Positions 1,244 to 28,373 of a DNA stretch of 64,000 bases are shown here, piece by piece. The position numbers and the translations under genes were made by a program. Source of the DNA: an uncultured Clostridia bacterium (GTDB taxonomy: Bacteria > Bacillota > Clostridia > Oscillospirales > Ruminococcaceae); assembly GCA_947624745.1 (NCBI GenBank), contig CANQLR010000008.1, positions 1,480 to 65,479 on the forward strand. The letters are read 5' to 3'. Every line of letters begins with the position of its first letter. Positions within the stretch are counted from its first letter, which is position 1. Under the pieces are notes generated by a model, which worked only from the letters and a program-made list of their open reading frames with translations, had not been told where the DNA came from and did no database searches.

Positions 1244-1320
<77 letters not shown>

Positions 1321-1325
1321 GTTAA

Positions 1326-1372
1326 AACCGCTTAGATAGGGCATTTGCCGGTCTGAGCGGTTCTTCTTTTTC
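1326..1372 (+). terminator. Rho-independent terminator after the tRNA (island-borne side)
   Basis: Stem AACCGCTTAGA / TCTGAGCGGTT followed by a CTTCTTTTT run. Confidence 0.6.
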
Positions 1373-1386
1373 TCTCTCAAAATCGG

Positions 1387-1410
1387 TTTTACCGCATTTT
1401 TACCGCACGA
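1387..1410 (+). repeat. 24-bp repeat containing two TACCGCA half-sites (candidate integrase arm-type site, left arm)
   Basis: TTTTACCGCATTTTTACCGCACGA is identical to 9073-9096, in the same orientation. Confidence 0.7.
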
Positions 1411-1447
1411 CCTCAAAAAGTAAAGCGTCTATGTTTTGACATAGACG

Positions 1448-2857
1448 CTATTTTTTATTGTCCGATTTTTGATTAAAAATCATATCTGAAATAATATCGC
1501 TCGACTGTGCGTCGGATTCTTTGATGATATGAGCGTATATATCGGTGGTGGTGCTGGTCTTTGAATGACCGAGTCTCTTTGATACAGACACGATGTCTTT
1601 GCCGCTGTTGATGAGTATTGACGCCATCGTGTGCCGAAAAGCGTGAGGATTGATATGCGGCAGTCCGTGCTTTTCAGAAAACTTCCTGAGCCACGCAGTT
1701 ATACTGTCAGGAATCATAGGTGTACCGTCGTCCTTTGTAAAACAATATCCGGTCTCCTTCCACCTGTCGCCATTATTGCGTTTAAGGTCATCGTACCAGT
1801 CCCTATACTCAGATAAGAGCTTCATTGTGTGCTCGGGCACTTTTACATATCGCACTGAGCTTTCGGTCTTGGTGGTGTCTTCATAAATGCCCCTCTTTGA
1901 GCTATACAGCAAATTGCTATCAATTTTTATTATGCTGTTTTCAAAATCTACCCTATCCCATTTCAAGCCCATTATTTCGCCTCGTCTGCAACCTGTAACT
2001 ATCAGCAATTCGGTGATAGCTCGCCATTTTATAGGCTCAGTTTCTAAGGCGTCCATAATCCTGCTTATATCCTCCGGCTGAAAATAGTTCACTTCCTTGC
2101 GAGAGCTTTTAGGCGGAGAAGCTTTGTCGGCAGCGTTGTACGGAACGAGCATTTCCTTTTCGGCTTGTGCGAGGATAGTGTGAATCAGCCTATGATGCTC
2201 CAAAATGGTCTTTGATGAAAGCGTAGTTTTATCTGCGCTCTCAACATCGAACCATTCAGAAAAATCCAGCCCAAGACATTCGCAGAGTTTTTTCGCTGTA
2301 GATAGATTTACAGCCTTATTTTGGCACATGGCTCCTATCGTTGACGCAGCAAGCCCGCTAAATTCGGAGACCTTAGCCTTTGAAAGATTGTTCTTTTTGA
2401 GCAGATCGCTAATGCTTTTCTTTGCGACAGCTTTAGACGAGAATGACGCCACTCCGTCTTCGGACAGATTGTCATAGAGGACATTTAGGTGCTGAGGACG
2501 TATGTCAGAAATCCTGATATTACCTATAGCGAGATTGATTCTTTCAAGAAGCTCTCTGTATCTCTCAATCGTTCTGAACTTGGCACCGGATTTGGTTTTG
2601 ACCTTAAGCACATAATCAGCGTACTCGGCGAACGTTATCTTGTCAACCTGATACCCGCTTTCAATGCTTCTTTCAAAGTCATAGGCAACCTTTTCAACAG
2701 CTTTTTGCAGTTGGTTTTCGGTCATCTTTTTATCAGGAACCCAAGTCATATATTTTCTTATCTGCTTGCCGTTGATGTCTTTTCCTGCGGAAACAGTGAT
2801 AAGAAAAGAAACCTTGTTTTTTCCGTCGATTCGTTTAATGCTTGCCGTCTTAGTCAC
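1448..2857 (-). CDS. int: Tyrosine-type site-specific integrase
   Basis: 469 aa. Catalytic motifs are TGCRRGE (Arg), HAFRHT (HxxR) and LGHSKTSTTTDIYAHI (His/Tyr). The N-terminus resembles an arm-binding domain. The GTG start overlaps the upstream XRE gene stop by 8 nt. Confidence 0.92.
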   Translation of the reverse strand: MTKTASIKRIDGKNKVSFLITVSAGKDINGKQIRKYMTWVPDKKMTENQLQKAVEKVAYDFERSIESGYQVDKITFAEYADYVLKVKTKSGAKFRTIERYRELLERINLAIGNIRISDIRPQHLNVLYDNLSEDGVASFSSKAVAKKSISDLLKKNNLSKAKVSEFSGLAASTIGAMCQNKAVNLSTAKKLCECLGLDFSEWFDVESADKTTLSSKTILEHHRLIHTILAQAEKEMLVPYNAADKASPPKSSRKEVNYFQPEDISRIMDALETEPIKWRAITELLIVTGCRRGEIMGLKWDRVDFENSIIKIDSNLLYSSKRGIYEDTTKTESSVRYVKVPEHTMKLLSEYRDWYDDLKRNNGDRWKETGYCFTKDDGTPMIPDSITAWLRKFSEKHGLPHINPHAFRHTMASILINSGKDIVSVSKRLGHSKTSTTTDIYAHIIKESDAQSSDIISDMIFNQKSDNKK

Positions 2858-3437
2858 CCTCTATCTCATAGTTGGAAATAAAATCATCGAGAAACCGCAT
2901 TATCTCTTGAGCAGCTCCCATTTCATAGAAGCGTATAGCCTCAGAATAATCAGCGAACAGTTCCCGGTCACTTTCGTCAATCTCCCCGGATTTCAGAGCT
3001 GAAATCTTGGAGAGGTAAATATCGATCATTCCGGCAATTCTCAGGTCAGAGATTAGTGCGGAATAAAGTTTGATATACTGCTCGGCATACTCAGACATCA
3101 CAGGAGTGCCATGTGCGCTTGCATATCGAAGATTCCTGAGTCTGTCAATAGCCTGTTGGTCAAGACCCAACTCGGAATATACGTCGGTGTCTACCCTGCG
3201 CTTGTTGGAATACTCCCCCACCAGATAGCCGAAGTCGCAGTCAAACAGTTCACACATTTTCAGCAAATCATATAGTGTGGGACTTGATTCCCCTTTTTCC
3301 CATTTGCGGACAGTCTGCCGCGTAGTGTTCAATTCTTCGGCAAGTCTTTCAGCGTCTTTCCAGCCTTTGTGTTTTCTTTCGGCTTCTATTATTTTTCCTA
3401 TGTCTTTTGCTTTGTCTGCGCTCAAAATGTTACCCAT
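2850..3437 (-). CDS. XRE-family HTH regulator with an uncharacterised C-terminal domain (candidate island repressor)
   Basis: 195 aa with a Cro/CI-type HTH (LAEELNTTRQTVRKWEKGESSPTLYDLLKMCELFDCDFGYLVGE). It is co-oriented with int, overlaps it, and is divergent from the xis-like gene. Confidence 0.8.
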   Translation of the reverse strand: MGNILSADKAKDIGKIIEAERKHKGWKDAERLAEELNTTRQTVRKWEKGESSPTLYDLLKMCELFDCDFGYLVGEYSNKRRVDTDVYSELGLDQQAIDRLRNLRYASAHGTPVMSEYAEQYIKLYSALISDLRIAGMIDIYLSKISALKSGEIDESDRELFADYSEAIRFYEMGAAQEIMRFLDDFISNYEIEGD

Positions 3438-3579
3438 TTTAACAACGTCCTTTATCGCGGCTTATCTTATGTTACAAATATCGTCTTTACTTTCACAGGA
3501 AAATTGAGTAGAATTAAATTAAAGAATTTTAAGTTAAAAATACCGATTGGTTATTTTCAGCTTAATAGGAGGTTATATT

Positions 3580-3813
3580 ATGAGAATGAGAACTCTCAAC
3601 GAAGCATTCAAGTACATTCAGGACAACGACCCGGAAACCTGTCTGACTAAATCAGCTCTACGGCGTCTGGTCACAACCGGAAAGCTGCCGTCAGTCAAGG
3701 TGGGTACAAAGTACCTCATTTCTTTAGAGATACTTGAGTCAACCCTTAAGAGTGGCTTTTCGGTCCAAAAAGCACCGGAACCGCAGGGCAAGATAAGACC
3801 CATAAACATCTGA
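3580..3813 (+). CDS. xis: Excisionase-family / MerR-like small DNA-binding protein
   Basis: 77 aa from ATG 3580 with a TAGGAGG RBS 7 nt upstream. The motif LTKSALRRLVTTGKLPSVKVGTKYLISLEILE is typical of excisionase-type HTH proteins. Confidence 0.7.
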   Translation: MRMRTLNEAFKYIQDNDPETCLTKSALRRLVTTGKLPSVKVGTKYLISLEILESTLKSGFSVQKAPEPQGKIRPINI

Positions 3814-3828
3814 GAGCGAAAGCGTGAT

Positions 3829-5071
3829 TTAATCACGCTTTTCTTTTTCTGCCATCTCGTGGCAGTCAAGAACGAATTTCTCCACCTGCTCGATGAGCTT
3901 GTCCCTGTCTTGCAACGCAAGAGAAACGTTGATGTAATAGCTTCTGTTTGTATGGAAAAACGGCTCTCTGTTTCTCTGGTCCTTCAACATCGGAATTAGA
4001 GATTTGCAGAAATCTTTAGCAGGAGCAGAACTCAGTCCGAATCTTTCAAAATCATTTATTACCCGCGAAGGAATGAAATAAAAGTCAGACTGCTCATTCC
4101 AAATTGATAGACCGAGCAGCGTATAGCTTTTTCCATTCGGAAGTGAAAACCTGAACTGAAGCTCGGTTGGAGCCATAGAGATGTAAATTCCATTTATTTG
4201 CTCCAAATCATAAACCAACTCGGTCACTTCGTCAGCGTCATATCCTCCATTATCCGCAAACCGAGAAATAAGCTCTCTGCGAGATAAGATGGGCTTAGAG
4301 TGCTTTTCGGAAGCTTCAGATATAATCACCGGTTCAGGGGAAAAGATATTGCGCTCGATCACATCGGTTCTGCTCGTGATGTGGGGCACAATAATCCTCC
4401 GACCTCCGTCTTCGTAAACCTCAACCTCGGCAAGAGCAAGGTTAAACGCCATATTTGCGTTGCTCTTAAGAAAGTCCGAAATCTCCTGAATCCCGGTCCT
4501 TATTCCGTCGCCGACAATCATAAGCAGAAAGTTTGCTTTGGAGAGGTTAGAATTTATGCTGTCATAGAAGTCAGCCTCGTCTTCCTCAGAAACAAGCTTC
4601 TTTTCTTTCAAGTATTCAAATATGGTAATGTTTACCCCCCCCCCCCGCAAAATTGTCAAAATATCCCTGAGCTATTTTGTCGAGTTTTTCTGCGTCCCAT
4701 TTTTGGACCTCTTTGGCGTAGTCGATTATTTGGGCGATAACGGTCCTTCGCGCTTCCTGATTCCTGAAGAGCTTTGTTTCGACAATGACAATCATTCCGG
4801 ACGGAGTTATATAGAGGTTGTCGATATATCCGGTGTTTTCTCCGGAGCCTACGGCGACCTCCCTGCCTATGCAAATCAAAGGAGTATAATCCCCTCCAAG
4901 CTGCGAGGTCGGAATGATTTCTGGGTACTTCTCTATAAGCTCCTGTAGCCAGAGTTCGTCAAAAGAGCTTGCTGATTCCTTATTCGTAAAAGGAACGCGC
5001 TTAAGCTTTACAGATTCTCCGTTTTCGGTCAAAAGGAAAACATCATGAGTAGATTTTTCGTTTGAAATCAT
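3829..5071 (-). pseudogene. PD-(D/E)xK nuclease-fold protein (NucS / DUF4263-like N-terminal core) with a ~270-aa uncharacterised C-terminal region. The reading frame is broken at a G12 tract.
   Basis: ORFs 4616-5071 and 3829-4659 overlap at the homopolymer. The N-terminal part has GYIDNLYITPSGMIVIVETKLFRNQEARRTVIAQIIDYA (D...ExK...Q..Y). Removing one G reads ...FDNFAGGGVNITIFEYL... as a single ORF of about 413 aa. Confidence 0.7.
4635..4646 (-). repeat. Homopolymeric tract: C12 on the plus strand, G12 in the coding sense
   Basis: Twelve consecutive C at 4635-4646, exactly at the frame break of the nuclease-fold gene. Confidence 0.95.
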
Positions 5072-5077
5072 AGTGAA

Positions 5078-5404
5078 TTATCCCTTGTACTTCGCGAGAA
5101 CAGCGTGTACAACTCTCCTATCGTCTTCGTTAGCCAAAGAGTACAAATTAGCTATTTCCTGCACGTCCTTCGGCATTACGTCAAACTGGTCACCGTTCAC
5201 TCCAAGAAGCCAGTCGATAGAAATGCCAAAGTGCTCGGCTATCTTTACGACGTAAGGAAGATCGGGCACCCTTGTTCCTGCAAGATAGCGCGACATCGTA
5301 ACCGGCGAGATTTCTATCTCCTCACTGAAGTCTTTTATGGTCATTCCCCTGCCCTCAAAAAGTCTGCGAAGTCTTTCACGAAACACGCTGTAATCAAAAG
5401 TCAT
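5078..5404 (-). CDS. XRE-family (CI-like) HTH regulator, first gene of the nuclease operon
   Basis: 108 aa with the HTH MTIKDFSEEIEISPVTMSRYLAGTRVPDLPYVVKIAEHFGISIDWLLG. Its stop is 6 nt before the nuclease-fold gene start. Confidence 0.8.
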   Translation of the reverse strand: MTFDYSVFRERLRRLFEGRGMTIKDFSEEIEISPVTMSRYLAGTRVPDLPYVVKIAEHFGISIDWLLGVNGDQFDVMPKDVQEIANLYSLANEDDRRVVHAVLAKYKG

Positions 5405-5523
5405 AATACAACCTCCTGAACAATTAGACTATATACGGTTTTATTTTAGCATATTTGAATTTGTTTTTCAACGAAAATTTTGAAAAAACACGAAAAAAAT
5501 TATAAAATCCAAGGTCAAAACAC

Positions 5524-5552
5524 TTGACAAATACCAGTTGGTATGGTAGAAT
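5524..5552 (+). promoter_or_regulatory. Promoter with an embedded inverted-repeat operator, for the cro-like gene
   Basis: TTGACA (5524-5529), a 17-nt spacer, then an extended -10 TGgTAGAAT (5544-5552). The spacer contains ATACCA-GT-TGGTAT. Confidence 0.55.
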
Positions 5553-5596
5553 AAACATATGGTATTTATACTCTCAAAGAAAAAGGAAGTGAAAAA

Positions 5597-5830
5597 ATGG
5601 AGAGAAAAGATTATAACGGCGTGAGAGCCGCGAGATGCGGGTACAACTACAGCCAAAAGGAAGTAGCTGATATTCTCGGAATAGATGTCAGGACCTATCA
5701 GTACAAGGAAAGCGGACGCGGTAAATGGAATAACAAAGAAATAGCCGCCCTCAGTAATCTTTTCAATTTTAGTATTTCTGAGATAAACCGGTATTTTTAT
5801 GACGGCATTCTACCAATCGGCAACGAGTAA
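5597..5830 (+). CDS. Small XRE-family (Cro-like) HTH protein
   Basis: 77 aa with the HTH YSQKEVADILGIDVRTYQYKESGRGKW and an AAGGAAG RBS. It is divergent from the 5078-5404 XRE gene. Confidence 0.75.
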   Translation: MERKDYNGVRAARCGYNYSQKEVADILGIDVRTYQYKESGRGKWNNKEIAALSNLFNFSISEINRYFYDGILPIGNE

Positions 5831-5891
5831 CTGAATAGTTGGTTATCTCGTTCCGCTGTTATAATCATACCTCGGAAAGGAGCAAGAATCA

Positions 5892-6389
5892 ATGTCGAGA
5901 AACGTAACAAAAGCTATGGGAAATAGATATTGCCAAGCACGTTTAGAGGCAGCAAAGTATAACGAAAAGCTACTTGTCAGGTCAAGCGCAGTTGAATTTC
6001 TCCCCGGCGTAACTGAGGACAGCTTGAAAAAATATGAGTTGGACATAAACAGACCTCCGAACACAGTGGTAGCTCTTATGGCAGACGCTTACAGTGCTCC
6101 CGATCTCACAGCTTGGTATTGTGCCAACGAATGCCCCTTAGGAAAGGACAGAAGAGAAATTCCAAAAATGCCGGCTGAAAGAGCACTGATAAGACTTCAA
6201 AATTCGGCTGAGGACATGGACGATATAATCCGGTCCATCTCTCAAATCATGGACGACGGAGAAATCACAGGTAACGAGAAAGAGGAAATAGCAAAGCTCA
6301 GTGCGGAGCTCAAAGAATGCGGTCACAGAATCAGCGAAATCACCGCCATTCTTGATAAGGCTTCGAAGCGAGGAGAATTTGACAGGTAA
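5892..6389 (+). CDS. Hypothetical phage/island regulatory-type protein (possible degenerate HTH N-terminus, acidic helical C-terminus)
   Basis: 165 aa with an AAGGAG RBS and non-repetitive composition. No catalytic motif was recognised. Confidence 0.6.
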   Translation: MSRNVTKAMGNRYCQARLEAAKYNEKLLVRSSAVEFLPGVTEDSLKKYELDINRPPNTVVALMADAYSAPDLTAWYCANECPLGKDRREIPKMPAERALIRLQNSAEDMDDIIRSISQIMDDGEITGNEKEEIAKLSAELKECGHRISEITAILDKASKRGEFDR

Positions 6390-6401
6390 GGAGAGATAGA
6401 T

Positions 6402-6620
6402 ATGTGCGCAGAATGCGGAAGCACTCCGTGTCTTAGCAGTTGCCCTAACAGAGTGGATAAGCCGATTGGCGTCTGCCCTGTTTGTAATGAGAAGATTCTT
6501 GATTATGAGCCGTTCTACGATTTTGACGGTGAGAAATATCATGATGTTTGTTTTCAGGACAACGCGGTCAGTATCCTGATGGATATGGGAGCCAGATTCT
6601 ATGAATGTTCGGAAGAGTGA
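6402..6620 (+). CDS. Small Cys-rich (zinc-ribbon-like) protein
   Basis: 72 aa with CAEC...C...C and CPVC pairs and an AAGGAGAG RBS. Confidence 0.6.
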   Translation: MCAECGSTPCLSSCPNRVDKPIGVCPVCNEKILDYEPFYDFDGEKYHDVCFQDNAVSILMDMGARFYECSEE

Positions 6621-6627
6621 GGAAAAG

Positions 6628-6947
6628 ATGAGCGAAAAAACGGTCACAAAGATTCCGGAATTTAAGGGATTCGACTTTGATGAAGAAAAACATCTGTATA
6701 CGAGGATAACGAAACCGGGTCATCTTTAAGGCTTGAAAGTTTAGAAGAAAATGAACGAACAGAGTACATAGTCGTTTTCAGGGACTATCTCTCAGGCGAA
6801 GAAACAAATAAAAAATATGCTCAGTTCAACGACGCTACAGCAAGGTTTGAAAGCATGGTCAACTTCATGCTGAAAAATCGAGGATCATATACTCGGAAAA
6901 TGTGTGAGTTTGTTATGAATCTGAAGCTTATCGGCGTTGCGGATTAA
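6628..6947 (+). pseudogene. Possible frameshifted small gene: a 33-aa ORF continuing in another frame to 6947
   Basis: ATG 6628 has a GAGGAAAA RBS and stops at 6727-6729. An open frame without a start codon runs on (SSLRLESLEENERTEYIVVFRDYLSGEE...LIGVAD) to a stop at 6945-6947. Confidence 0.3.
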
Positions 6948-7111
6948 GCCACTTGTTATCTATGGCGAGAAAATGTAAAATAATATTACGGAAAAACAAA
7001 AGCAGATGCTTAGTGCTCTCATCGGTCCGTACAGCTCCGCAACCTTAGTGGAAGAAGAATTGAGAAGCTCAGGTGCCAGAGTGCTCATATAAACATCATG
7101 GAGGTCTAAAA

Positions 7112-7339
7112 ATGGACAAAAGAATCCTCAAAGCGTTATCTGAATTATCTGAGGCAGACGCAATCATGTATGCGGCGGACATTGCGTACATTCCGACATT
7201 ATCACCCGATTCTTGCGATGAAGAGATTTCCGAAAGAGCTATGAATGCTTTTTACGCTGTATGGAAAAAGGTGAAAGAGGCTCAGAATATCCTTGACGGA
7301 TTGACTAAGGGATTGAACTTTGAAGAGAATGTAGATTGA
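7112..7339 (+). CDS. Hypothetical small protein
   Basis: 75 aa from ATG 7112 with a GGAGG RBS 7 nt upstream, followed by a terminator. Confidence 0.55.
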   Translation: MDKRILKALSELSEADAIMYAADIAYIPTLSPDSCDEEISERAMNAFYAVWKKVKEAQNILDGLTKGLNFEENVD

Positions 7340-7352
7340 CAATCGAGGGCAA

Positions 7353-7380
7353 AAAAGACCGGTTTCACCCGGTCTTTTTA
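7353..7380 (+). terminator. Rho-independent terminator
   Basis: AAAAGACCGG-TTTCAC-CCGGTCTTTT followed by a T-run. Confidence 0.75.
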
Positions 7381-7480
7381 TATATAATCTTTCAAGAAAG
7401 AGAATCGGAATATAATTTTTCAAAAAAGTGTTTACTTTTTTGGAAAATGTGGTATAATATAAACAGAAGGAGGCGATAAG

Positions 7481-8527
7481 ATGTTAGGAAAGAATTTGAA
7501 GTATTATAGGCTCAAGAACGGTTTGTCTAAAGCAAAGCTTGCGGAAAAAGTAGGCGTTTCTCCTATGTCGATTACTCACTATGAAAACGATGAAAGAAAG
7601 CCCTCGATGGATATCCTCAAAGCTTTGGCAACTGCCCTGAATGTCAAAGTTTCTGACTTCTTGGCAAACGAGGGCGAAATACGTTCTCTTACTTATGGCG
7701 AGTTCCGCAAGGGGAGCAAGCTGTCTAAGAATCAGCAGGAGTATATCTATGCTTCATTGGAAGAGTATATGAACAGGTTTTATTATGCGGTCAGAATTTT
7801 GGGTGGAAAAGTTATGCCTACTCCCCCGGATTCTCATGGAGTACGGTTATCTTCTAATGCTGAAGATGACGCAAAAGCTCTTAGAAAATATCTTCATATA
7901 TCCGAAATAGGTCCGGTAGGAAATCTTGTTGAAATGCTTGAGAATATAGGTATTCTTGTATATTTTATTGATATTGACAACGATGCTTTTTCAGGAATAA
8001 ACGGACAGGTCAATGGAAGACCATACATTGCAGTAAACGGCAATATGAGTCCGGAACGTATTCGTTCAACCATAGTTCACGAGATGGCACACTTTATTTT
8101 TGAGTGGCCCGAAGATATGGAGGACGATAGAATTGAAGATAGAGCAACCGCAATAAGCGGAGCTTTCCTCTTGCCGGAAGAAGACGCTAAAAGAGAGCTT
8201 GGTCTCAAGCGGCGCGCTATTTCGAATGATATGCAGCTAATTTGCAAGGAGTACGGAATATCTATGTTTATGCTTGCAAAAAGGGCAGTTCTGTGCGGTA
8301 TAGTTTCAGACAATGCCGCAAAGAATTTCTATATTTTAGCAAGTCAGAACGGATGGAGAAAAAGCGAGCCTGTTAGGATTCCGAAAGAAGAACCCACGCT
8401 GTTTTCTCAGCTTATATTCAGAGCGGTTAGTGAAAGCGAAATATCCATTCAGAAAGGTGCAGAGCTGTTGAAAAAACCATATACCTATGTTGCTGAACAG
8501 TGCTTTGCAACGAAGGGAGAACTATGA
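7481..8527 (+). CDS. XRE HTH fused to an ImmA/IrrE-family zinc metallopeptidase domain
   Basis: 348 aa. The N-terminal HTH is LSKAKLAEKVGVSPMSITHYENDERKPSMDILKALATAL, and the HExxH motif is in TIVHEMAHFIF. An extended -10 TGTGGTATAAT lies upstream. Confidence 0.85.
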   Translation: MLGKNLKYYRLKNGLSKAKLAEKVGVSPMSITHYENDERKPSMDILKALATALNVKVSDFLANEGEIRSLTYGEFRKGSKLSKNQQEYIYASLEEYMNRFYYAVRILGGKVMPTPPDSHGVRLSSNAEDDAKALRKYLHISEIGPVGNLVEMLENIGILVYFIDIDNDAFSGINGQVNGRPYIAVNGNMSPERIRSTIVHEMAHFIFEWPEDMEDDRIEDRATAISGAFLLPEEDAKRELGLKRRAISNDMQLICKEYGISMFMLAKRAVLCGIVSDNAAKNFYILASQNGWRKSEPVRIPKEEPTLFSQLIFRAVSESEISIQKGAELLKKPYTYVAEQCFATKGEL

Positions 8528-9018
8528 AATATATCAGCAGTGACACAAATGTTTGGATTGATTTTTTGACTATCAACCGCCTTGAGCTGCCTTTTAAGCT
8601 CCCATACATATATTTGATGAATGAAGATGCCGTAGAAGATGAAATGCTCAATCCTACCAATCTTGGAGATAAGCTCGTAGAATTAGGGCTTGAAAAAACA
8701 TCTCTGACAGAGGACGAGTTCTTTTTAGCTGAAAAGTTGAGCGAAAAATATTTAAAGCTTTCCAGATATGACTGTATAGCGTTGGCAATCGCAAAAATCA
8801 GAAAAATTGAACTTCTTACAGGAGACAAAGCGCTCAGAAAAGCTGCCAATTCAGAAAACGTAAAAGTTACAGGCACAATAGGTATCTTAGACAGACTGTT
8901 AAAGGGACAGTATATTGATCAAGATGAGTATATACGTTGCTTAGATAGTCTTTCAGAACATAACGGTAAGATAGTACGTCTACCGGAAAAAGAATTAAAA
9001 AAGCGGCTGAAAAAGTGA
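8524..9018 (+). CDS. PIN-like (DUF3368/DUF4411-type) predicted nuclease, partner of the ImmA-XRE protein
   Basis: 164 aa. The ATG overlaps the upstream stop (ATGA). The N-terminus has SDTNVWIDF (acidic PIN-type start). The C-terminal ELLTGDKALRKAANSENVKVTGTIGILDRLLK resembles DUF3368 proteins. Confidence 0.6.
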   Translation: MKYISSDTNVWIDFLTINRLELPFKLPYIYLMNEDAVEDEMLNPTNLGDKLVELGLEKTSLTEDEFFLAEKLSEKYLKLSRYDCIALAIAKIRKIELLTGDKALRKAANSENVKVTGTIGILDRLLKGQYIDQDEYIRCLDSLSEHNGKIVRLPEKELKKRLKK

Positions 9019-9072
9019 TATTGATGTTATATCACATAGGCATTTTTTCAAGTTAATTTCGTTAGCAATATT

Positions 9073-9096
9073 TTTTACCGCATTTTTACCGCACGA
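9073..9096 (+). repeat. 24-bp repeat containing two TACCGCA half-sites (candidate integrase arm-type site, right arm)
   Basis: Identical to 1387-1410 and lies about 117 bp inside attR. Confidence 0.7.
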
Positions 9097-9212
9097 GGAT
9101 ATGAAAAAATGCGGTAAAATGCGAAAAGGTATGAAAAGACTTCGATTAAGAAACGGCGTATTACAGCGATTTGAGCACAATTATGGGAGAAGACGAAAAG
9201 GAAAAATCTCAA

Positions 9213-9258
9213 CTCATAACCCGGAGGTCGTTGGTTCAAGTCCTTCCCCCGCAACCAA
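9213..9258 (+). repeat. attR core: displaced 3' half of tRNA-fMet, not a functional gene
   Basis: Identical 46-bp copy of 1275-1320. It lacks the acceptor 5' strand and the D arm. Confidence 0.9.
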
Positions 9259-9951: not shown

Positions 9952-10554
9952 TTATTTCTCTCCCCTCCTCCACCCCTCTGCTCTATACCTAAACGTCGAA
10001 AGCGGCATATTACAGGCCTTTGCGGCGGCGGTGCCGGTGATGTCGCCCGCCTGCCAGCTCTCGACCGCGGCGGTAAAATTCTCGGGGAGGGGCTCGGGAG
10101 GCCTGCCGAAACGCACACCGCGGGCCTTTGCGGCAGCGATGCCCTCGGCCTGGCGCTGGCGAATGTTCGTGCGCTCGTTCTCGGCGACAAAGCTAAGTAC
10201 CTGAAGCACGATGTCGCTCAAAAACGTGCCGACGAGGTCCTTGCCGCGCCGGGTGTCCAGAAGCGGCATGTCGAGAACGCAGATGTCGACCCCCTTGTCC
10301 TTCGTGATGACCCGCCACTGCCGCTGGATCTCCTCGTAATTTCGGCCGAGGCGGTCGATGCTTTTTATATAGAGCAGGTCGTCGCGCCGCAGCCTGCGAA
10401 GCAGCCTTTTGTAGTTCGGGCGATCGAAATCCTTGCCCGACTGTTTATCAATGTAAAGGTTTTCAGCGGGAACGCGCGCCTCGCTCATCGCGATAAGCTG
10501 CCTGTCCTCGTTCTGCTCCCTTGTGCTGACGCGAATGTAACCGTAGATCTCCAT
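9952..10554 (-). CDS. Small serine recombinase (resolvase/invertase family)
   Basis: 200 aa. YGYIRVSTREQNEDRQ contains the catalytic Ser motif, and there is a C-terminal HTH (ITGTAAAKACNMPLSTFRYR). GGAGGGAG RBS. Confidence 0.9.
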   Translation of the reverse strand: MEIYGYIRVSTREQNEDRQLIAMSEARVPAENLYIDKQSGKDFDRPNYKRLLRRLRRDDLLYIKSIDRLGRNYEEIQRQWRVITKDKGVDICVLDMPLLDTRRGKDLVGTFLSDIVLQVLSFVAENERTNIRQRQAEGIAAAKARGVRFGRPPEPLPENFTAAVESWQAGDITGTAAAKACNMPLSTFRYRAEGWRRGEK

Positions 10555-11064
10555 TTTGCTCCCTCCTCACTGATATTTTACATCAATAATTATGCAAAAT
10601 TCAAGCCCCCGCCGGTGCCAAATGATACCGACGAGGGCTTTTTCAACCATAATATTATGTGCTTAAATTTTTGTGAGGATTTTGGGGGAGATGGGCGCGT
10701 GCTTCTCTTCGCACCTCTGCTTGCTTCGCTGCTGTCGTTTCTGCACGTTTTTTCGTGAGTTTCGACTATTTTCCTCCCCGGTTTCGCCCGCAGTCATAAC
10801 TACCTCCAAATCGCTTAACTCCCCTGCTCCGAGGCTTTATTAAAGCCCATTCCCTCTCTCAATCGTTCGCCATGACTGCAATGACCCTCCAACCGTTCGG
10901 GTTTTGTGCTGCCCCACGGTTTAGGTGAAATTCGTTGGTGCGGCGCTCCCACACGTCGGCGTTCGCTTGTGCGCAGCTTCTTTCTTGCAGCAGACTCTCT
11001 ACCCGGTGGGGCGAGGTAGTTGCCGCACTTTCCTGCCTCACCGCGGCAAATCGCGAGCCTGCAC

Positions 11065-11158
11065 GGGCGAAGCCCCTGCGCGGAGCTGCGCTCCGCGCGG
11101 CCGGGAGGCTCTGCCTCCCGGCCCGCCGGCCACGAAGTGGCCGGCGGGGGCTTCGCCC
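11065..11158 (+). repeat. Nested hairpin module 1a: outer stem plus three hairpins
   Basis: Outer stem 11065-11075 pairs with 11148-11158 (GGGCGAAGCCC/GGGCTTCGCCC). Inner hairpins are at 11078-11098, 11100-11122 and 11123-11147. Confidence 0.75.
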
Positions 11159-11198
11159 CGCGCCCCGTAGCCTCCGCACCAACCCGCAGACCCCGCGC

Positions 11199-11287
11199 GG
11201 CGAAGCCCCGGTCGGCAGCTTCGCTGCCGACCCTGCGCACTTCGTGCGCAGGAGGCGCCCACTCCGCGGGCGCCTCGGGGCTTCGCC
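11199..11287 (+). repeat. Nested hairpin module 1b
   Basis: Outer stem is GGCGAAGCCCC (11199-11209) / GGGGCTTCGCC (11277-11287). Inner hairpins are at 11210-11232, 11233-11251 and 11252-11276. Confidence 0.75.
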
Positions 11288-11744
11288 CCCGCCACCAGCA
11301 CACCTCCCGCCCCAAGTTATTGACCGAACTTCGGTGCAGAGTTTGCCTCGCTCCCCGCTCGGCAAATAAGGAAACGCCGCCCCACTTCCAGCGCAACATT
11401 CGCATTAACTGCTTAGCTCCGGCTTCTCTTTGCCTCGCTCGTCGCTCGACAAATAGGGGACCCCCGGCGAGGGTCCCCTACGCCAAAACAGTCCACTGGA
11501 CTGATTTTGGCTACCCTCCTGCGCTCGCTAACGCTTAAGAGGATTTCGCCCGTTGCGACGGGCGACCAAAGGCTCCTCGCCTCTGGACTCTCGCCCGCTT
11601 TTTGAGGAAAAGCGGGGTAAAACCTTTTCAGTTTCAGCGATATAGGGAGTCCCTTTATCACCACCTCCATAAAAATTCGCCCCCTCCACCCGGGAGGGAG
11701 CCCACTTCCTCAAAACCTACATATCCCATCCCTTATCCCCAAAA

Positions 11745-12821
11745 TTACTCCTCCTCGATTTCGAACCTCATTCCCTCGATCTCGACCGACTCAATCTGCG
11801 CGATATCGAACACCGAGGTGAACTCATAGCTTATCCCGAACCTGCTGCCGTCCGAAACTGTGCCGGAGCCGCCGATGATATGCGTCATGGTGAGGTACTC
11901 GGGACCCATCTTCGACAGCCCCATCGGGTTGTCGACCACGACCGTGCCGTCCTTGAGGGTCAGGGTGATGTCGGCGTTGAAGAGCCTTTCGTTGTTCAGC
12001 TCGACATGCTCCTCGGGAGTCAGCTTATCCTCGGTATAAAGTATCATTCCGCAGCCGTCCGCCTCGAGGATATATTCGTGGCCGCCGAGCGTCTGAGGCT
12101 CTTTGCAGACGTAGGTCGAGAGAACGGTGTAGTCCTCGCTGCTCACCCTGATCTCGCCGGGGTGATAGCTTACGCCTATGCTTTCTCCGTCCTTGAAGGT
12201 GAAATGCTCTATCCCGTCCCAGCTTATGCCGATGGTGTCCGGCAGACCGCCGTGGATCCCGCCCCGAAGGACGAAGGTCATGACGCCGTTTTCGCAGGAA
12301 AGCGGGGTTGGGCCGCTTATTCCCGCGCCGGAGCCGAGGTATTTTTCGCCGTTTTCGTCTATCCCGTAGATCATGACGTTTTCAAACTGATAGAACCCGT
12401 CGAGCATTTTTTCGTCCTCGGTTATGAACTCCGCGTCGTTGAAATTAAGCTCGAATGTCGCGAATAACGCCCATTTTCCGGCGACTACGCTTTCAAACCT
12501 CGCCTCGCCGGGCAAAAGCTCGCCCTCGGGGCTAAGCTCGGTGACCTTGCTGTCGACGTTGCTGTCCCGAAGCGCCTCCGGGATCTTCTGGCTGACGTTT
12601 TTCTCGCCGATGTAGCCGCTAAGCTTGAACAGCCCGCCGAAGCCGGCCGCCGCCACCGATATCCCGAGCACCGCCGCAAGCGCCGCGACTATCGCCGCCG
12701 TGCGCGCTATTTTTTTCTTTTCCATCGTGATGCCTCTCCTTTCGCTTGCCGAATATTCAAACACTTCTTTGATAAATTTCGGGTCTACCCCGTTAAGTTT
12801 TTCCGACAGGAAATATTTCAC
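11745..12821 (-). CDS. Membrane-anchored protein downstream of the ECF sigma (putative anti-sigma / DUF4179-like partner)
   Basis: 358 aa. The GTG start is 6 nt after the sigma gene stop. The N-terminus has VDPKFIKEVFEYS, followed by a single TM segment (IARTAAIVAALAAVLGISVAAAGF). Confidence 0.7.
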   Translation of the reverse strand: MKYFLSEKLNGVDPKFIKEVFEYSASERRGITMEKKKIARTAAIVAALAAVLGISVAAAGFGGLFKLSGYIGEKNVSQKIPEALRDSNVDSKVTELSPEGELLPGEARFESVVAGKWALFATFELNFNDAEFITEDEKMLDGFYQFENVMIYGIDENGEKYLGSGAGISGPTPLSCENGVMTFVLRGGIHGGLPDTIGISWDGIEHFTFKDGESIGVSYHPGEIRVSSEDYTVLSTYVCKEPQTLGGHEYILEADGCGMILYTEDKLTPEEHVELNNERLFNADITLTLKDGTVVVDNPMGLSKMGPEYLTMTHIIGGSGTVSDGSRFGISYEFTSVFDIAQIESVEIEGMRFEIEEE

Positions 12822-24257: not shown

Positions 24258-24508
24258 TGAAAAGTCCTCCGTTAATTTTTTAGGTGATGCGCAGGGATAT
24301 TATACTATATTAAGGGTGAGTTGTCAAGGGGATAAAGTTTTTGAGATTTACTTTTGCGGCAGCGGATATCCCCCCATTTCTTAAATTTCTCTTAATTTTT
24401 CCTTTTGTAACTCTTTTGTTATTGATTTTTTGCGCGGGAGTGGTATAATAGATAGGGAAACGGGTGAAATGCTCTTTTTACATATTTTTCTTTTTTCGGA
24501 GATATAAA

Positions 24509-26236
24509 ATGCGCCACATACACTACATCTACATTAAATATAAATTTAAATTTATTTTTTCGATAGCCGCCGCGGCTTCGCTTTTGTTTACGGGCTGCGC
24601 TTCGCTTTTGCCTTCCTCGGACGAGGCGACCGCTTCGGAGCCGTCGGTGAGTATTTTTACGCAGTCCAAGCCCGCGGCTGCCGAACCTGCCGAAACTCGC
24701 GACCCCAATATTCCCGATTTTGTGGTGGATACCACCGCCGCGCCCGACGAGCCGGAGCCGCCACAAAGCTCGCCCGAGACTGCCGAAGCCGTTGAGACCG
24801 AGGAGATCCCGCAGCAGAGCGACATTTCCGGGGAAATCGTCGACGACTGGAGAGCGGGTCTTAACATTGAATACCCCGCCGACGTGGAGGAGCTTTTTCA
24901 GCGGTTTTCCATCGACAAAAATACCCGGGAGGGGTATTACAGAATGATCTCCTCCGAATGTCAGCTGCCTGTAATTCACATTTCTACCGAAAACGAACAG
25001 GAAATTCTGTCCCGCGAGGATTATGTGAACTGCCTCGTCGAGATAATGAACTGCGCCGAGGTCTATAAGCTTGCGGCGACGGCGGGGATCCGCGTTCGGG
25101 GCAACGCGAGCGCGGATTACGGAAACGTCGACTTCATCAGAAACAACATTGTCTCGTACCGCGTGAAATTCGACGAAAAGCAGTCGATGCTCGGGCTGAA
25201 CGACTTCGCGAGGTGCCGCTCGTGGATACTCTTAAAAGCCTATGAGACGGGCGTCCGCAACCTTCTGGCGTTCCGCCTTGCCGAGGCGATAAACGAGGGG
25301 AACTACTACGTTTCGGACTGCACGCCGGTGCAGGTCTACGTCAACGAAAAGTACGCCGGACTCTACATTCTGTGCGAGCAGACCCAGGAAAACTCGCAGA
25401 GGGTCGACATAAACGAGGCCGAGGACGGCTACACAGGCACCGACATAGGGTATCTTGTGGAGCTCGACAACTACGCTTCGTCGGACGGCGACCCGTTCTT
25501 CCTCCTGAACTACGACAACGAGGAGATCACCGACGTCTACGGCACCACGCGCGTGCCGAGAAAGTACACATATTCGGTCAAAAACGACCTCTACGGCGAC
25601 GAGCAGCTCAAATTCATCGAGAGAAGATTTGAGATCTATTGGGAGATCGCGCTTCGGGCGATAAAGTACGGCGAATTCTGGAAGATGGACGAAAATTACG
25701 AGATCGTCCCCGCCGCGGACGGCGAATTTTCGAGCGCTTACGAGTGCATAAACGCCGCCATTAACGTCGATTCGGTGGTGGATATGTATATGCTCTACGA
25801 GATCGTGAACGACCAGGACCTCGGCGGGGGGAGCTTCTTCTTCGCCGCCGATTACGGCCCCGACCCCGTTTACCCGAGGCTCACGATGGTGGCCCCGTGG
25901 GACTTCGACTGGGGCTATTCCGACTATAAGTGCACCCCCGACGGCGGCATCTACGCGGCGCGCTTCAAGGATGACTATTTTGTGCAGAATTGGGGCGACC
26001 GCTCGAACCCGTGGCTGATTCTTTTCTATTCCGCCGATTGGTTCAGAGAGCTTGTGAAGGAAAAATGGGCGCAGCGCCTCGGGGCGATAGAGGCGGTCAT
26101 GGACGAGACGGAGCAGCTCGCGGTCGACTATTCGGAGGACTTCGATAAGGACGGCGTCCACCGCGCCGCAAAGGCAAAGGCAACGGTGGATTGGACACGG
26201 CAGAGGGTGGAGTATCTGAACGGGGTGTGGGGGTAA
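24509..26236 (+). CDS. cotH: CotH-family (spore-coat kinase-like) lipoprotein
   Basis: 575 aa from ATG 24509 with lipobox LFTGC. Blocks IRVRGNASADYG, YVNEKYAGLYILCEQ and GGGSFFFAAD are typical of CotH domains. Confidence 0.75.
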   Translation: MRHIHYIYIKYKFKFIFSIAAAASLLFTGCASLLPSSDEATASEPSVSIFTQSKPAAAEPAETRDPNIPDFVVDTTAAPDEPEPPQSSPETAEAVETEEIPQQSDISGEIVDDWRAGLNIEYPADVEELFQRFSIDKNTREGYYRMISSECQLPVIHISTENEQEILSREDYVNCLVEIMNCAEVYKLAATAGIRVRGNASADYGNVDFIRNNIVSYRVKFDEKQSMLGLNDFARCRSWILLKAYETGVRNLLAFRLAEAINEGNYYVSDCTPVQVYVNEKYAGLYILCEQTQENSQRVDINEAEDGYTGTDIGYLVELDNYASSDGDPFFLLNYDNEEITDVYGTTRVPRKYTYSVKNDLYGDEQLKFIERRFEIYWEIALRAIKYGEFWKMDENYEIVPAADGEFSSAYECINAAINVDSVVDMYMLYEIVNDQDLGGGSFFFAADYGPDPVYPRLTMVAPWDFDWGYSDYKCTPDGGIYAARFKDDYFVQNWGDRSNPWLILFYSADWFRELVKEKWAQRLGAIEAVMDETEQLAVDYSEDFDKDGVHRAAKAKATVDWTRQRVEYLNGVWG

Positions 26237-26241
26237 ATGAG

Positions 26242-26267
26242 AGCAGGCTGAGGAGCCTGCTTTTTTT
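26242..26267 (+). terminator. Rho-independent terminator after the cotH-like gene
   Basis: AGCAGGCT-GAGG-AGCCTGCT followed by TTTTTT. Confidence 0.8.
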
Positions 26268-26574
26268 ATTGGGAAGGGGGAGGGAGGAAAAGAGGCAGGA
26301 GGGAAAGGTACTTTTTTAGTCTCTCTCGGGCTCGTTTGAGGGTGCGGGAGACGGTCGGGGCGGTGACGCCGCGGAGGACGGCGGTCTCGTATATCGTGCG
26401 TTGGGCGAAGTAATAGTCGCACATGAACAGGTACTGGCGCGGGGTGAGGGCGCGCTTCATGAGCTTTCGTAGCTGCTCCGGGGAGGAGGGCAGCAGGCGG
26501 GCGGCGGCCGGGGAGGACCGGGGAGAGGGGAGGATATCGGACAAGAGGTCGAATGATACGCGGGTGGGGGACAT
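26266..26574 (-). CDS. Small sigma-70 region-4-like HTH protein
   Basis: 102 aa from ATG 26574 with LTPRQYLFMCDYYFAQRTIYETAVLRGVTAPTVSRTLKRARERLKKY. The longer 337-aa ORF in the track runs into the hairpin array and is spurious upstream. Confidence 0.65.
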   Translation of the reverse strand: MSPTRVSFDLLSDILPSPRSSPAAARLLPSSPEQLRKLMKRALTPRQYLFMCDYYFAQRTIYETAVLRGVTAPTVSRTLKRARERLKKYLSLLPLFLPPPSQ

Positions 26575-26721
26575 GGGGGCTCCTTCTTTGGATTGGATTG
26601 GGTGTGGTTTGTGATGGGGTGGGTGAAGGGTGGGGCAGGGAGGGGTGGATGTGTGGCGAAGCCCCACGGGGCTTCGCCACCGCGCGCCCTGCTTCGCCGC
26701 AGCAAGGTGCAGACTTTGCGC

Positions 26722-26813
26722 GGCGAAGCCCCTGCGCGGAGCGCAGCTCCACGCGGCCGCGGACCGGAGGTCCGCGGCCCACCGGCCACGAAGTGGCCGG
26801 TGGGAGCTTCGCC
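26722..26813 (+). repeat. Nested hairpin module 2a
   Basis: Outer stem is GGCGAAGC (26722-26729) / GCTTCGCC (26806-26813). Inner hairpins are at 26734-26754 (one mismatch), 26756-26778 and 26779-26803. Confidence 0.7.
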
Positions 26814-27032
26814 CCCGTCGACAGCACTCCTCCCGCCCCGAGTTGTTGGCGGAACTTGGGTGCAGAGTTTGCCTCGCTTGTCGCTCGGCAAACGGGGAGA
26901 CCCCCGGCGAGAACGCAACGGCCAATCGACTGCTGAATCGTTCCTTAGTGGCCGTTGCGCAACGAACCCGCCGGAGCGGCGGCTTCGCCTCCGCGCGCCC
27001 TGCCTCAGCGCAGCAAGGTGCAGACTTTGCGC

Positions 27033-27124
27033 GGCGAAGCCCCTGCGCGGAGCAAAGCTCCGCGCGGCCGCGGACCGGAGGTCCGCGACCCACCGGCCAC
27101 TTCGTGGCCGGTGGGGGCTTCGCC
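27033..27124 (+). repeat. Nested hairpin module 2b
   Basis: Outer stem is GGCGAAGCCC (27033-27042) / GGGCTTCGCC (27115-27124). Inner hairpins are at 27045-27065, 27067-27089 (one mismatch) and 27090-27114. Confidence 0.72.
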
Positions 27125-27684
27125 CCCGCCGACAGCACCCCTCCCGCCCCGAGTTGTTGGCGGAACTTGGGTGCAGAATTTGCCTCGCTCATCGCTCGGC
27201 AAATGGGGAGTGTAGCTCCGGCTTTATGCAAAACCGATTGCCTTAGATTTAGTCGCGGGCTTTTCTTTGCCTCGCTCATCGCTCGGCAAATTGGGAGTGG
27301 GGCTCAGGCTTTGTGCGTGACCGGGTGCCTTAGATGAGGCTGCGGGTTTTTGTTTGCCTCGCTCATCGCTCGGCAAACGTGGAGACCCCCGGCGAGAACG
27401 CAACGGCAGAGCGACTGCTGAATCGTACCTTAGTGCCCGTTGCGCAGCGAACCCGCCGGAGCGGCGGCTTCGCCCGGGGCGGGCTGATTGCTCCTCCCTG
27501 TCCTGCGCTGGCTTGCGCATGGGGATTTCGCGCTCTGCGGAGCGCGACGAGGGGCGCTGCCCCTCGACCCTGCGGCCTTTTGAGGAAAGGCCGGCGAAAC
27601 CTTTTTAGTATTGGTAACACCTCGCAACCTTACTGGGGAAAAGCGGGGTAAAACCTTTTTGGTTTTGGGCATTCGGGGCTTTGA

Positions 27685-27987
27685 CTATTTCTCCCTCTCC
27701 TCGATATACTTAAGTATATCCCGCATATCGCGGAGGAGCTCGAACTTTTCCTCGCTCAAAACGCGCAGGCGGCGTTCATAAACGGGGAGGAGGGACGTAT
27801 CCCGAGTCTCGCGCATCTCCCGGTAAAGCCTGCTCCGATGCTCCTCGAGGCGCTTTGCCTCGGCGCTGTAGCTCTTCGCCAGCGCCCTATACTCCGCGAG
27901 AGGGTCGCGGCTGCTCATCACGATTTTCCTGCGGCGGCGAACGCTCGGGTCGCCGGCGGCATATGCCGTATTTACATTATTTTGCAT
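27685..27987 (-). CDS. Hypothetical small helical, charged protein
   Basis: 100 aa with a GAAGGAGAA RBS and a coiled-coil-like Arg/Glu-rich sequence. Confidence 0.5.
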   Translation of the reverse strand: MQNNVNTAYAAGDPSVRRRRKIVMSSRDPLAEYRALAKSYSAEAKRLEEHRSRLYREMRETRDTSLLPVYERRLRVLSEEKFELLRDMRDILKYIEEREK

Positions 27988-28187
27988 TTTTTCTCCTTCT
28001 TCTTCGGGCGGACGGGGCGGCCGCGCCTTTTGTAGCTCTCGTGAAGAACAAATGTTTCCTTCACAATTACTAATATACTCCTTTTTTTCGGTTTGTCAAG
28101 AGGTTTTTTCGGAGCTGTACGATTTTTTGGACTAATGCTCTTGATTTTGGCGGGAAGCTGTGCTATAATGGGTCTCGGAGGGATATC

Positions 28188-28373
28188 ATGGACAGCAAAA
28201 AAATTCAGCGGATTAACGAGCTTGCGAAAAAGGAGAAGGCGCAGGGCCTCACTAAAGCCGAAAAGGAAGAGCAGACCGCTCTTCGGAACGAATATCGGGC
28301 GGCATTTCGGGCGAGCCTTGAAAGCCAGCTCAAAAGAATAGAATTTGTAGACAAGGAGGGAAAACCGTCATGA
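28188..28373 (+). CDS. DUF896 (YnzC/UPF0291) family small protein
   Basis: 61 aa: IQRINELAKKEKAQGLTKAEKEEQTALRNEYRAAFRASLESQL matches the DUF896 pattern. Confidence 0.8.
   Translation: MDSKKIQRINELAKKEKAQGLTKAEKEEQTALRNEYRAAFRASLESQLKRIEFVDKEGKPS

Follow-up and report, generated by a model that had tools for sequence, protein, structure and literature searches.

Extragenic palindromic repeats are well known in Proteobacteria and remain poorly charted in Firmicutes and in uncultured gut lineages. The closest described systems to the repeats reported here are the repetitive extragenic palindromes (REPs), together with bacterial interspersed mosaic elements (BIMEs) and REP doublets forming hairpins (REPINs). 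In over 90% of the members of the REP superfamilies, the stem-loop has an unpaired GTAG or CGTC at one of its ends, and the 2013 survey of REPs did not count Firmicutes among the phyla found to have such repeats (PMC3733652). REP, BIME and REPIN elements are short GC-rich extragenic palindromes, present in tens to hundreds of copies and placed mostly just past genes (PMC3733652, PMC3116915); their termini are inverted, hairpin-forming copies able to pair into one large stem-loop, and they show complementary stem changes, genome-specific subfamilies and persistence at orthologous loci. These same traits recur in a module found four times in a 64,000-nucleotide stretch of the genome of an uncultured Clostridia bacterium of the Ruminococcaceae (contig CANQLR010000008.1, positions 1,480 to 65,479 of the forward strand; hereafter, the window). 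Unlike REPs, however, the modules carry three obligatory hairpins between their termini, which close into a four-way junction, rather than a short linker, and their stems are almost free of G-T pairs and mismatches. We propose, with a probability that we put at roughly 0.55, that the modules constitute a family of short, non-coding, extragenic DNA repeats (73-103 bp) that is lineage-specific and found in gut Clostridia, similar to REP/BIME/REPIN elements but of a different architecture. The family is apparently undescribed, as a literature search by keywords and by the exact sequence of the outer stem (here called the clamp) returned no description of it.

The preliminary description of this DNA reported four modules in which an outer stem encloses three back-to-back hairpins. 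All four are present with the sequences quoted, and DNA folding confirmed that they share one architecture, with an outer stem of 11-12 bp, hairpin stems of 8-12 bp and loops mostly of 3 nt. The modules, and a clamp hairpin lacking the inner hairpins, are located as follows (z-scores for the plus and minus strand, in this order; matches refer to the covariance model, CM, described below):

11065-11158, module 1: clamp arms at 11065-11076 and 11147-11158; DNA folding energy -58.1 kcal/mol, z -10.2 / -10.3; CM match on both strands; hairpins at 11078-11098 (9 bp, loop TGC), 11099-11123 (11 bp, TCT) and 11124-11146 (10 bp, GAA), with one unpaired junction nucleotide.
11199-11287, module 2: clamp arms at 11199-11209 and 11277-11287; z -9.6 / -9.9; CM match; hairpins at 11210-11232 (10 bp, TTC), 11232-11252 (9 bp, TTC) and 11252-11276 (9 bp, 7-nt loop).
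26722-26813, module 3: clamp arms at 26722-26732 and 26803-26813, with one C/A mismatch (GGAGCTTCGCC); z -8.5 / -8.9; CM match; hairpins at 26734-26754 (loop GCA, one mismatch), 26755-26779 (11 bp, GGA) and 26780-26802 (GAA).
27033-27124, module 4: clamp arms at 27033-27043 and 27114-27124; z -9.9 / -10.1; CM match; hairpins at 27045-27065 (9 bp, AAA), 27066-27090 (GGA, one mismatch) and 27089-27115 (12 bp, TTC).
26653-26680, "empty" clamp hairpin: GTGGCGAAGCCC-CACG-GGGCTTCGCCAC, the outer stem on a 4-nt loop, without inner hairpins; z -6.6; CM score 29.9 bits.

Folded as single-stranded DNA (ssDNA), all four modules adopt the closed four-way shape as both the minimum-energy and the centroid structure on both strands, with energies of -46 to -58 kcal/mol and z-scores of -8.5 to -10.3 against dinucleotide shuffles, none of 200 shuffles being as stable. 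They are, moreover, the four most structured 100-nt windows of the 64 kb when folding energy is regressed on GC content. The 11-mer clamp half-site occurs 13 times in the window at no more than one mismatch, compared with 2.5 expected occurrences, and a scan of the 64 kb for perfect hairpins (stem of at least 8 bp, loop of 3-7 nt) showed that the GC-rich ones cluster in two intergenic regions, 10555-11744 and 26237-28369. A CM search of the window returned no modules beyond those listed. Modules 1 and 2 are also present in an independent ENA contig of the same strain (L001).

The four window copies are, however, not independent samples, because modules 3 and 4 belong to a tandem duplication and modules 1 and 2 are neighbors (they adjoin, 133 nt apart, and their upstream flanks are related):

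26670-26899 and 26981-27210, plus strand: the two units of a 311-bp tandem duplication, 92% identical, carrying modules 3 and 4 with their flanks.

The 18 differences between the two units fall on 5 of 9 loop positions, 2 of 61 stem positions, 1 of 22 clamp positions and 10 of 138 flank positions. Compensatory changes noted in the preliminary description are likewise real: hairpin 3 reads CCGCCGGCCAC in one copy and CCACCGGCCAC in another, with the other arm matched, and hairpin 2 differs between modules 1 and 3 at about four positions, all of them compensated. The observations made within the window stand, but as evidence they are weaker than they seemed, the copies being local duplicates; nor do compensatory substitutions by themselves prove selection on a transcript. 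Two loops are inverted between copies, namely that of hairpin 3 (GAA at 26790-26792 in module 3, TTC at 27101-27103 in module 4) and that of hairpin 1 (TGC in module 1, GCA in module 3). Three changes in modules 3 and 4 are uncompensated (26751, 26805 and 27088); all are G>A on the plus strand (n = 3 only), giving G-T wobbles in the minus-strand fold and A-C mismatches in the plus-strand fold.

Further copies come from a pattern search of the GTDB species, one genome each, for clamp halves spaced 33-93 nt apart, which returned at least 91 loci, all of which were folded. These contain at least about 45 further three-hairpin modules beyond the window and, among the matches listed, all of them come from metagenome-assembled genomes (MAGs) of gut Clostridia: some ten rabbit "Lapin" bins, the rumen Ruminococcaceae genome RUG14213 and the Oscillospiraceae MAG ERP123703_co1_345. 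Each module consists of GGCGAAGCCCC, three adjoining hairpins and GGGGCTTCGCC, with a total length of 73-103 nt and stems of 6-31 bp (median 8). Every multiloop has three branches, and the junction is nearly devoid of unpaired nucleotides (of 46 modules, 20 have none and 37 have at most two). Some 50 clamp pairs were counted in the window together with about 330 kb of Clostridia loci; exact half-sites are never solitary, and all pairs enclose exactly three hairpins save two, the empty one in the window and a degenerate one (L005, 7558-7591). The conserved inverted repeat is in fact 12 bp long, (G)GGCGAAGCCCC / GGGGCTTCGCC(C), and each of its arms is itself a small palindrome, GGGC-GAA-GCCC. 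In the one variant clamp, GGCGGAGCCCC/GGGGCTCCGCC (L082), solely the middle loop base of this arm mini-hairpin is altered, and the other arm is matched. Since a MAFFT alignment of full modules was structurally meaningless, the CM was built from trimmed, equal-length seeds; it detects every module on both strands with nearly equal scores, and every detected module with inner hairpins is three-branched, rather than having hairpins in arbitrary number.

The contrast between the conserved outer stem and the variable inner hairpins, which had been noticed in the window, holds across the family, the clamp being its sole conserved sequence. In the CM-guided alignment, 97.8% of cells are standard pairs, as compared with 69% in shuffled and 41-49% in slid alignments, and the covariation that the preliminary description proposed to check is strong (score 0.511 vs. 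0.097), with the caveat that this alignment was fitted to the structure and includes both strands. All 18 modeled inner pairs vary on both sides and take all four Watson-Crick types, whereas 5 of the 11 clamp pairs are invariant. The GC content of the inner hairpins tracks that of the host (0.34-0.41 in RUG14213, a genome of 35-38% GC; 0.72-0.94 in genomes of 52-61% GC) while the clamp stays constant. Hence, and this is the clearest sign in our data, the clamp appears to be read as a sequence and the hairpins as a shape only. Orthologous loci retain the module, with compensated changes, as the neighboring intergenic DNA diverges: one pair (L013/L024) differs by two double compensatory substitutions next to a diverged promoter region, another (L005/L205) by two further compensated transitions, and in a third (L006/L091), whose upstream gene is about 90% identical, the stems are identical and the loop of hairpin 1 is inverted (TTC/GAA). 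Arm-proximal hairpins starting with CGCCGGCC are found in the window and in several MAGs, which argues for shared ancestry of the modules rather than de novo origin.

Several features bear on the question of whether the fold acts at the level of DNA or RNA. The inner pairs comprise 929 G-C, 210 A-T and 4 G-T pairs, i.e., 0.35% wobble (4 of 1143), plus five one-by-one mismatches. Triloops account for 97 of 126 loops (77%); of these triloops, 79 (81%) read GNA or the complementary TNC, and in 92 the closing pair is 5'C..G3'. Bacterial perfect inverted repeats as a whole favor 4-bp spacers (PMC13155455), while d(cGNAg), including GCGAAGC, is an extraordinarily stable DNA mini-hairpin (PMC13037366) whose stability depends on the closing pair (PMC3201870). 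Within modules, GNA and TNC orientations are mixed at random (2:0 in 10 modules, 1:1 in 10 others); a strand coherence of GNA loops was thus not convincing. An inverted loop is a rearrangement, in DNA, of the spacer that separates two inverted repeats. Taken together, the scarcity of wobble, the DNA-type triloops, the loop inversions and the strand symmetry favor an ssDNA or mobilization role over an RNA role; the alternative between RNA or ssDNA fold and mobilization raised in the preliminary description is thereby supported, with the weight moved from RNA to DNA. They are what one would expect if hairpins or cruciforms form in DNA and one arm is corrected on the template of the other, a process that would likewise give rise to "compensatory" changes in the absence of selection on a transcript.

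Copies at unrelated loci bear on the question of spread. Lapin-002_bin56 has six or more modules that are nearly identical yet have unrelated flanks, and such copies within one genome imply that the element has spread. RUG14213 and the Oscillospiraceae MAG each have their own module subfamily, and Lapin-012_bin76 has seven exact-clamp copies plus the copy with the GGA-type variant clamp (L082), with no hairpin in common among them. Locally, modules can be dense, with four in 8 kb in one locus (L048) and three around uvrB-uvrA in another (L065); overall we estimate about one module per 25 kb, a rough figure based only on modules not used for locus selection. In L065, a Lapin MAG locus, the modules lie at 36-129, upstream of uvrB, at 2209-2296, between uvrB and uvrA, and at 5862-5934, about 670 nt past uvrA, the middle one starting 18 nt past the uvrB stop codon and ending 44 nt ahead of the next start. 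In the ERP123703_co1_345 subfamily (L021, L056, L057, L073, L093) the middle hairpin is about 20 bp long and the clamp is extended outward by an inverted repeat of about 20-22 bp with CGTAAACA...GTAGG, the variable stretch between these motifs showing compensated variation; the clamp-adjacent GTAGG recalls the GTAG tag of REPs. All modules are intergenic, and most lie 8-60 nt past the stop codon of, or between the cistrons of, unrelated housekeeping genes, so they must often be transcribed; four lie in divergent promoter regions. We saw no functional enrichment among the genes upstream of modules and, in the one subfamily that could be scored, no orientation bias with respect to neighboring genes. 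The idea that modules insert into the tips of existing hairpins was discarded, since complementarity of the flanks beyond the clamp is significant in just 6-7 of 45 modules, four of which belong to one subfamily whose extension is part of the element.

The likeliest alternative is a structured RNA, whose hairpins would be kept by selection on RNA folding and which might serve as a very stable roadblock in 3' untranslated regions (3'UTRs) or between cistrons, shielding the upstream mRNA from 3'-5' exonucleases, as a terminator without a U tract, or as a small tRNA-shaped RNA. Several modules do lie between co-directional genes, as in uvrB-module-uvrA, RNA folding energies reach -60 to -100 kcal/mol, the covariation is strong, and RNA-level effects of this kind are known for REP elements (PMC3733652). 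Sense-strand GNA loops also outnumber TNC loops by 32 to 14, but this count comes from non-independent copies, and an orientation bias of GNA loops relative to genes was accordingly not convincing. G-T pairing is common in those REPs that are thought to act as RNA (PMC3733652), in contrast to the 0.35% seen here, and the loops are DNA-stable cGNAg triloops, not the GNRA or UNCG tetraloops favored in RNA. Loops are oriented at random within a module, and the two strands give similar scores; none of 24 oriented modules is followed by a T tract, so that they do not qualify as intrinsic terminators; four modules stand in divergent promoter regions; and the window modules come 400-800 nt after canonical terminators and adjoin no promoter-like site. 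Rfam gave no match at the gathering threshold for the window and six foreign loci, and at E of 10 or less just noise of 13-15 bits for the module region, in line with the earlier statement that the modules fit no known RNA family. An RNA role is thus a serious possibility, if on balance an unlikely one. The modules could also be a passive palindrome by-product of fold-back or template-switch synthesis nucleated on GNA mini-hairpins, with no recognition protein, mobility or function; perfect stems, 3-nt loops centered on cGNAg, loop inversions and arm-symmetric indels are all expected from template switching, and the window copies do lie in duplication-rich spacers. We regard this as improbable, since such a process accounts neither for a clamp that is invariant in genomes of 35% to 61% GC nor for a hairpin number that is always three, and it is at odds with near-identical modules at unrelated loci, with the homologous CGCCGGCC hairpins common to the window and several MAGs, and with stems that change more slowly than flanks (2 of 61 vs. 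10 of 138 positions). Finally, the arms of every hairpin are perfect inverted repeats set 3 bp apart, as they would be in a double-stranded operator bound by a dimeric regulator, and some modules lie in divergent promoter regions; a cluster of such operators is nevertheless hardly credible, as almost every copy within a genome has palindromes of its own (some two dozen different hairpins occur in the seven exact-clamp copies and the variant of Lapin-012_bin76 alone), and as the palindromes follow genome GC in composition and stand beside unrelated genes, the clamp alone being conserved.

The reading of the modules as a family of extragenic DNA repeats, which we prefer, would work as follows. 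On opening of the duplex, which could occur on the lagging-strand template, via transcription-driven supercoiling or on passenger copying into RNA, either strand would snap into a nearly fully paired four-way junction made up of the clamp and the three hairpins, a fold that would form in DNA in vivo. The arms of each hairpin would be kept identical by intra-hairpin template switching or repair, and we propose that it is because the arms are equalized by such DNA-level processes that wobble is nearly absent and loops are inverted. Since the clamp is invariant across hosts of very different base composition, it may be the recognition site of a conserved trans-acting protein, possibly a hairpin- or junction-specific nuclease or a transposase, analogous to RAYT for REPINs, that would place copies of the element at new sites, most of them a short way past genes. 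In a four-way junction, full pairing and coaxial stacking are possible with no linker nucleotides, which is not so in a perfect three-way junction; the simplest physical explanation of the fixed count of three hairpins would be that this number gives a perfect four-way junction free of any unpaired linker. Effects on mRNA 3' ends would be secondary. One may go further and regard the module as a new, structure-defined class of mobile or maintained DNA, a self-folding ssDNA four-way junction and mimic of the Holliday junction, whose sole sequence-specific part is the 12-bp self-complementary clamp and which would be recognized and copied by a putative hairpin or junction enzyme, vertically inherited within a clade of gut Clostridia, in a partnership like that of REPIN and RAYT with an unrelated enzyme; this stronger version is doubtful, and we put it forward tentatively. 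In a variant of it, the three-hairpin units may be chromosomal single-strand initiation (priming) signals of the phage G4 type.

A number of observations weigh against the preferred reading of the modules as mobile DNA repeats. No mobilizing enzyme was found; a tblastn search of the window and all loci (about 0.8 Mb) with IS608 and IS200 TnpA (Y1) queries, a weak test, gave nothing below E = 0.25. A serine recombinase gene near module 1 was considered as a partner and rejected, as it does not recur beside modules at other loci. No target-site duplication flanks the six Lapin-002_bin56 copies or others, and the flanks of 42 modules show no obvious target motif beyond G...C. It is solely from the dispersed near-identical copies that we infer transposition, because no pair of an empty and a filled site was recovered. 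Orthologous modules persist across species, so that turnover is slow and a host function is possible. The likely presence of most copies in 3'UTR or intercistronic RNA, and the loop bias discussed above, also count against the preferred reading. Lastly, the clamp 11-mer is not exclusive to the family, since many environmental bacteria have plain hairpins with this 11-mer at their base.

The last point deserves some detail. In a second scan, of JGI metagenomes with 1-61 nt between clamp halves, at least 120 matches were obtained; the matches listed are almost without exception plain hairpins, and they include a single genuine three-hairpin module (L205) and no chain of one or two hairpins. A plain 15-16-bp hairpin, GGCGAAGCCCCCGGG-NNN-CCCGGGGGCTTCGCC, stands at the orthologous locus of many related soil-type contigs of this set (L111, L114, L117, L121, L133-L135, L140, L150, L163, L168, L178, L196, L211, L215, L218); its loop varies (ATC, GAT, TCT, AAT, ATT and others), another case of fast loop change on a fixed stem. 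Matches in other phyla (Tannerella, Rhodothermales, Roseomonas, Magnetococcales and others) have the same 11-mer inside a longer stem. Repeats that start and end with GGCGAAGCCCC/GGGGCTTCGCC but lack the three hairpins occur in Tannerella/Dysgonomonadaceae, a Rhodothermales MAG, Roseomonas acroporae and a Magnetococcales MAG, at the following loci:

L017, L019, L022, L033, L037, L051, L078, L087, L088; L014, L039, L066, L067, L081; L010, L041, L044; L049, L052, L062, L074: non-module repeats sharing the terminus.

We therefore rejected the notion of a universal cross-phylum element, the matches in other phyla being unrelated repeat families or plain hairpins that contain the 11-mer.

Comparison with described elements supports the view, already taken in the preliminary description, that the modules fit no known REP/BIME class. 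Among 42 modules, GTAGG beside the clamp is seen in the ERP123703_co1_345 copies and a few others, not in the window copies, so that in general the family lacks the GTAG/CGTC tag of REPs. In REPIN-RAYT systems, the genome also has one RAYT (Y1/HUH transposase) gene, as a rule with the repeats on either side of it; in the sequences searched here, no such gene was seen in the weak test described above. A single REP unit has a stem of 5-13 bp and recurs with unchanged sequence in a given genome, often in head-to-head or tail-to-tail dimers; here, the clamp arm is a 4-bp mini-hairpin in a dimer-like inverted pair, three unrelated hairpins always lie between the arms, and inner sequences differ between copies. 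The modules are not miniature inverted-repeat transposable elements either, since terminal inverted repeats are present but flanking direct repeats are not and the internal sequence is unconserved in most genomes. Integron attC sites resemble them in being defined by a single-strand fold, with short conserved terminal inverted motifs and variable length. Yet an attC site is a single, imperfect, strand-specific hairpin with extrahelical bases and R/L boxes that flanks cassettes next to an integrase, whereas the modules have three perfect clamped hairpins and housekeeping neighbors, and no integron integrase is present (the tyrosine integrase at 1448-2857 belongs to an island at tRNA-Met). In the inverted terminal repeats (ITRs) of parvoviruses such as adeno-associated virus (AAV) and in Streptomyces telomere palindromes, an outer stem likewise surrounds small GC-rich hairpins with 3-nt loops that fold in ssDNA, with loops of the sheared G-A (GNA) type and inversions of the flip/flop type. 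These, however, are ends of linear replicons with two inner hairpins (a three-way T or Y) that serve in priming or end patching, while the modules are internal, dispersed and intergenic, with three inner hairpins. Single-strand initiation (ssi) and related ssDNA signals (the phage G4 origin, ssiA, N4 promoters) share GCGAAGC with the clamp arm, and the complementary-strand origin of G4, like the modules, comprises three hairpins (PMC13037366). They are single, strand-specific ssDNA sites of phages or plasmids with defined priming, as opposed to strand-symmetric, multicopy, chromosomal modules; on these grounds, and given that 2.9 million viral contigs of IMG/VR contained no three-hairpin module, an origin or ssi signal of phage or plasmid was rejected, and a plasmid search gave no meaningful match. 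The likeness to AAV ITRs, Streptomyces telomeres and the three-hairpin G4 origin is thus, taken as an analogy, structural only. Intrinsic terminators and intercistronic stabilizing stem-loops, such as those in cellulolytic Clostridia (PMC9045158), share GC-rich stems just past stop codons, and the plain hairpins built on the clamp 11-mer in many bacteria are terminator-like; the modules differ from terminators in their multibranch fold, their triloops in place of tetraloops, their lack of a U tract and, in the window, their position beyond real terminators.

In the window, the flanks of the modules are repetitive as well:

11288-11370, 26814-26895 and 27125-27206, plus strand: downstream flank common to modules 2, 3 and 4, CCTCCCGCCCC-(G/A)AGTT..GGTGCAGAGTTTGCC-TCGCT-N4-GCTCG-GCAAA.
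11342-11366, 11429-11453, 26868-26892, 27179-27203, 27266-27290 and 27353-27377, plus strand: six copies of a strand-specific repeat, TTTGCC-TCGCT-N4-GCTCG-GCAAA, all on this strand.

The common flank is genome-specific and co-duplicated with the modules; it was not found in any foreign locus and thus lies outside the family. The shorter repeat, some copies of which form 87-nt tandem units (27179-27352), was likewise duplicated along with the modules; it was detected in contigs of this strain and in no other locus. In several ENA and Logan samples, every short-read contig of the strain stops at the repeat regions, which implies that the repeats are multicopy in that genome. The first module region is flanked by the serine recombinase open reading frame (ORF; Resolvase domain, 9952-10554, minus strand), about 500 nt from module 1, and by an ORF at 11745-12821 (minus strand) that follows a gene for an extracytoplasmic function (ECF) sigma factor; the second has a CotH-domain gene (24464-26236, plus strand) on one side and a DUF896/WYL gene pair on the other. 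The genes upstream of the two regions are each directly followed by a canonical terminator (11701-11679 and 26239-26264). The serine recombinase gene lies outside the integrated island at tRNA-Met (1244-9258; tRNA at 1244-1319), which has a GC content of 40-44%, compared with 54-63% elsewhere, and is bounded by a perfect 46-bp direct repeat (attL/attR, 1275-1320 and 9213-9258), with a second, 24-bp repeat at 1387-1410 and 9073-9096. It encodes the tyrosine integrase (1448-2857, minus strand), several helix-turn-helix (HTH) regulators, an ImmA/IrrE-type HTH-peptidase (7481-8527) and a PIN protein. A tie between modules and island was rejected, as the island ends at 9258. Elsewhere, the window contains a ribosomal protein L10 leader (RF00557, 47.5 bits) at 37822-37946 on the minus strand, and one of its proteins is 68% identical to a protein of a Lapin MAG. 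The L10 leader agrees with a Firmicutes origin, and together with this protein and the DUF896 and CotH genes it suggests that the window probably stems from a Firmicute related to the Lapin hosts.

We herein describe a family that is unusually clean, in that an invariant clamp stands beside three positions where only pairing matters, with a fixed number of hairpins, DNA-type loops and visible loop inversions. It is hence a natural test case for how hairpin formation at the DNA level shapes sequence evolution, and, as "compensatory substitution" can arise without selection on RNA, it calls for caution in covariation-based discovery of non-coding RNAs. On the practical side, it can explain why contigs break when these gut bacteria are assembled from short reads. 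Moreover, the family provides a handle for finding the protein that would read a clamped four-way DNA junction; the mobilizing enzyme, if new, would represent a structure-specific DNA-handling activity of possible value as a tool.

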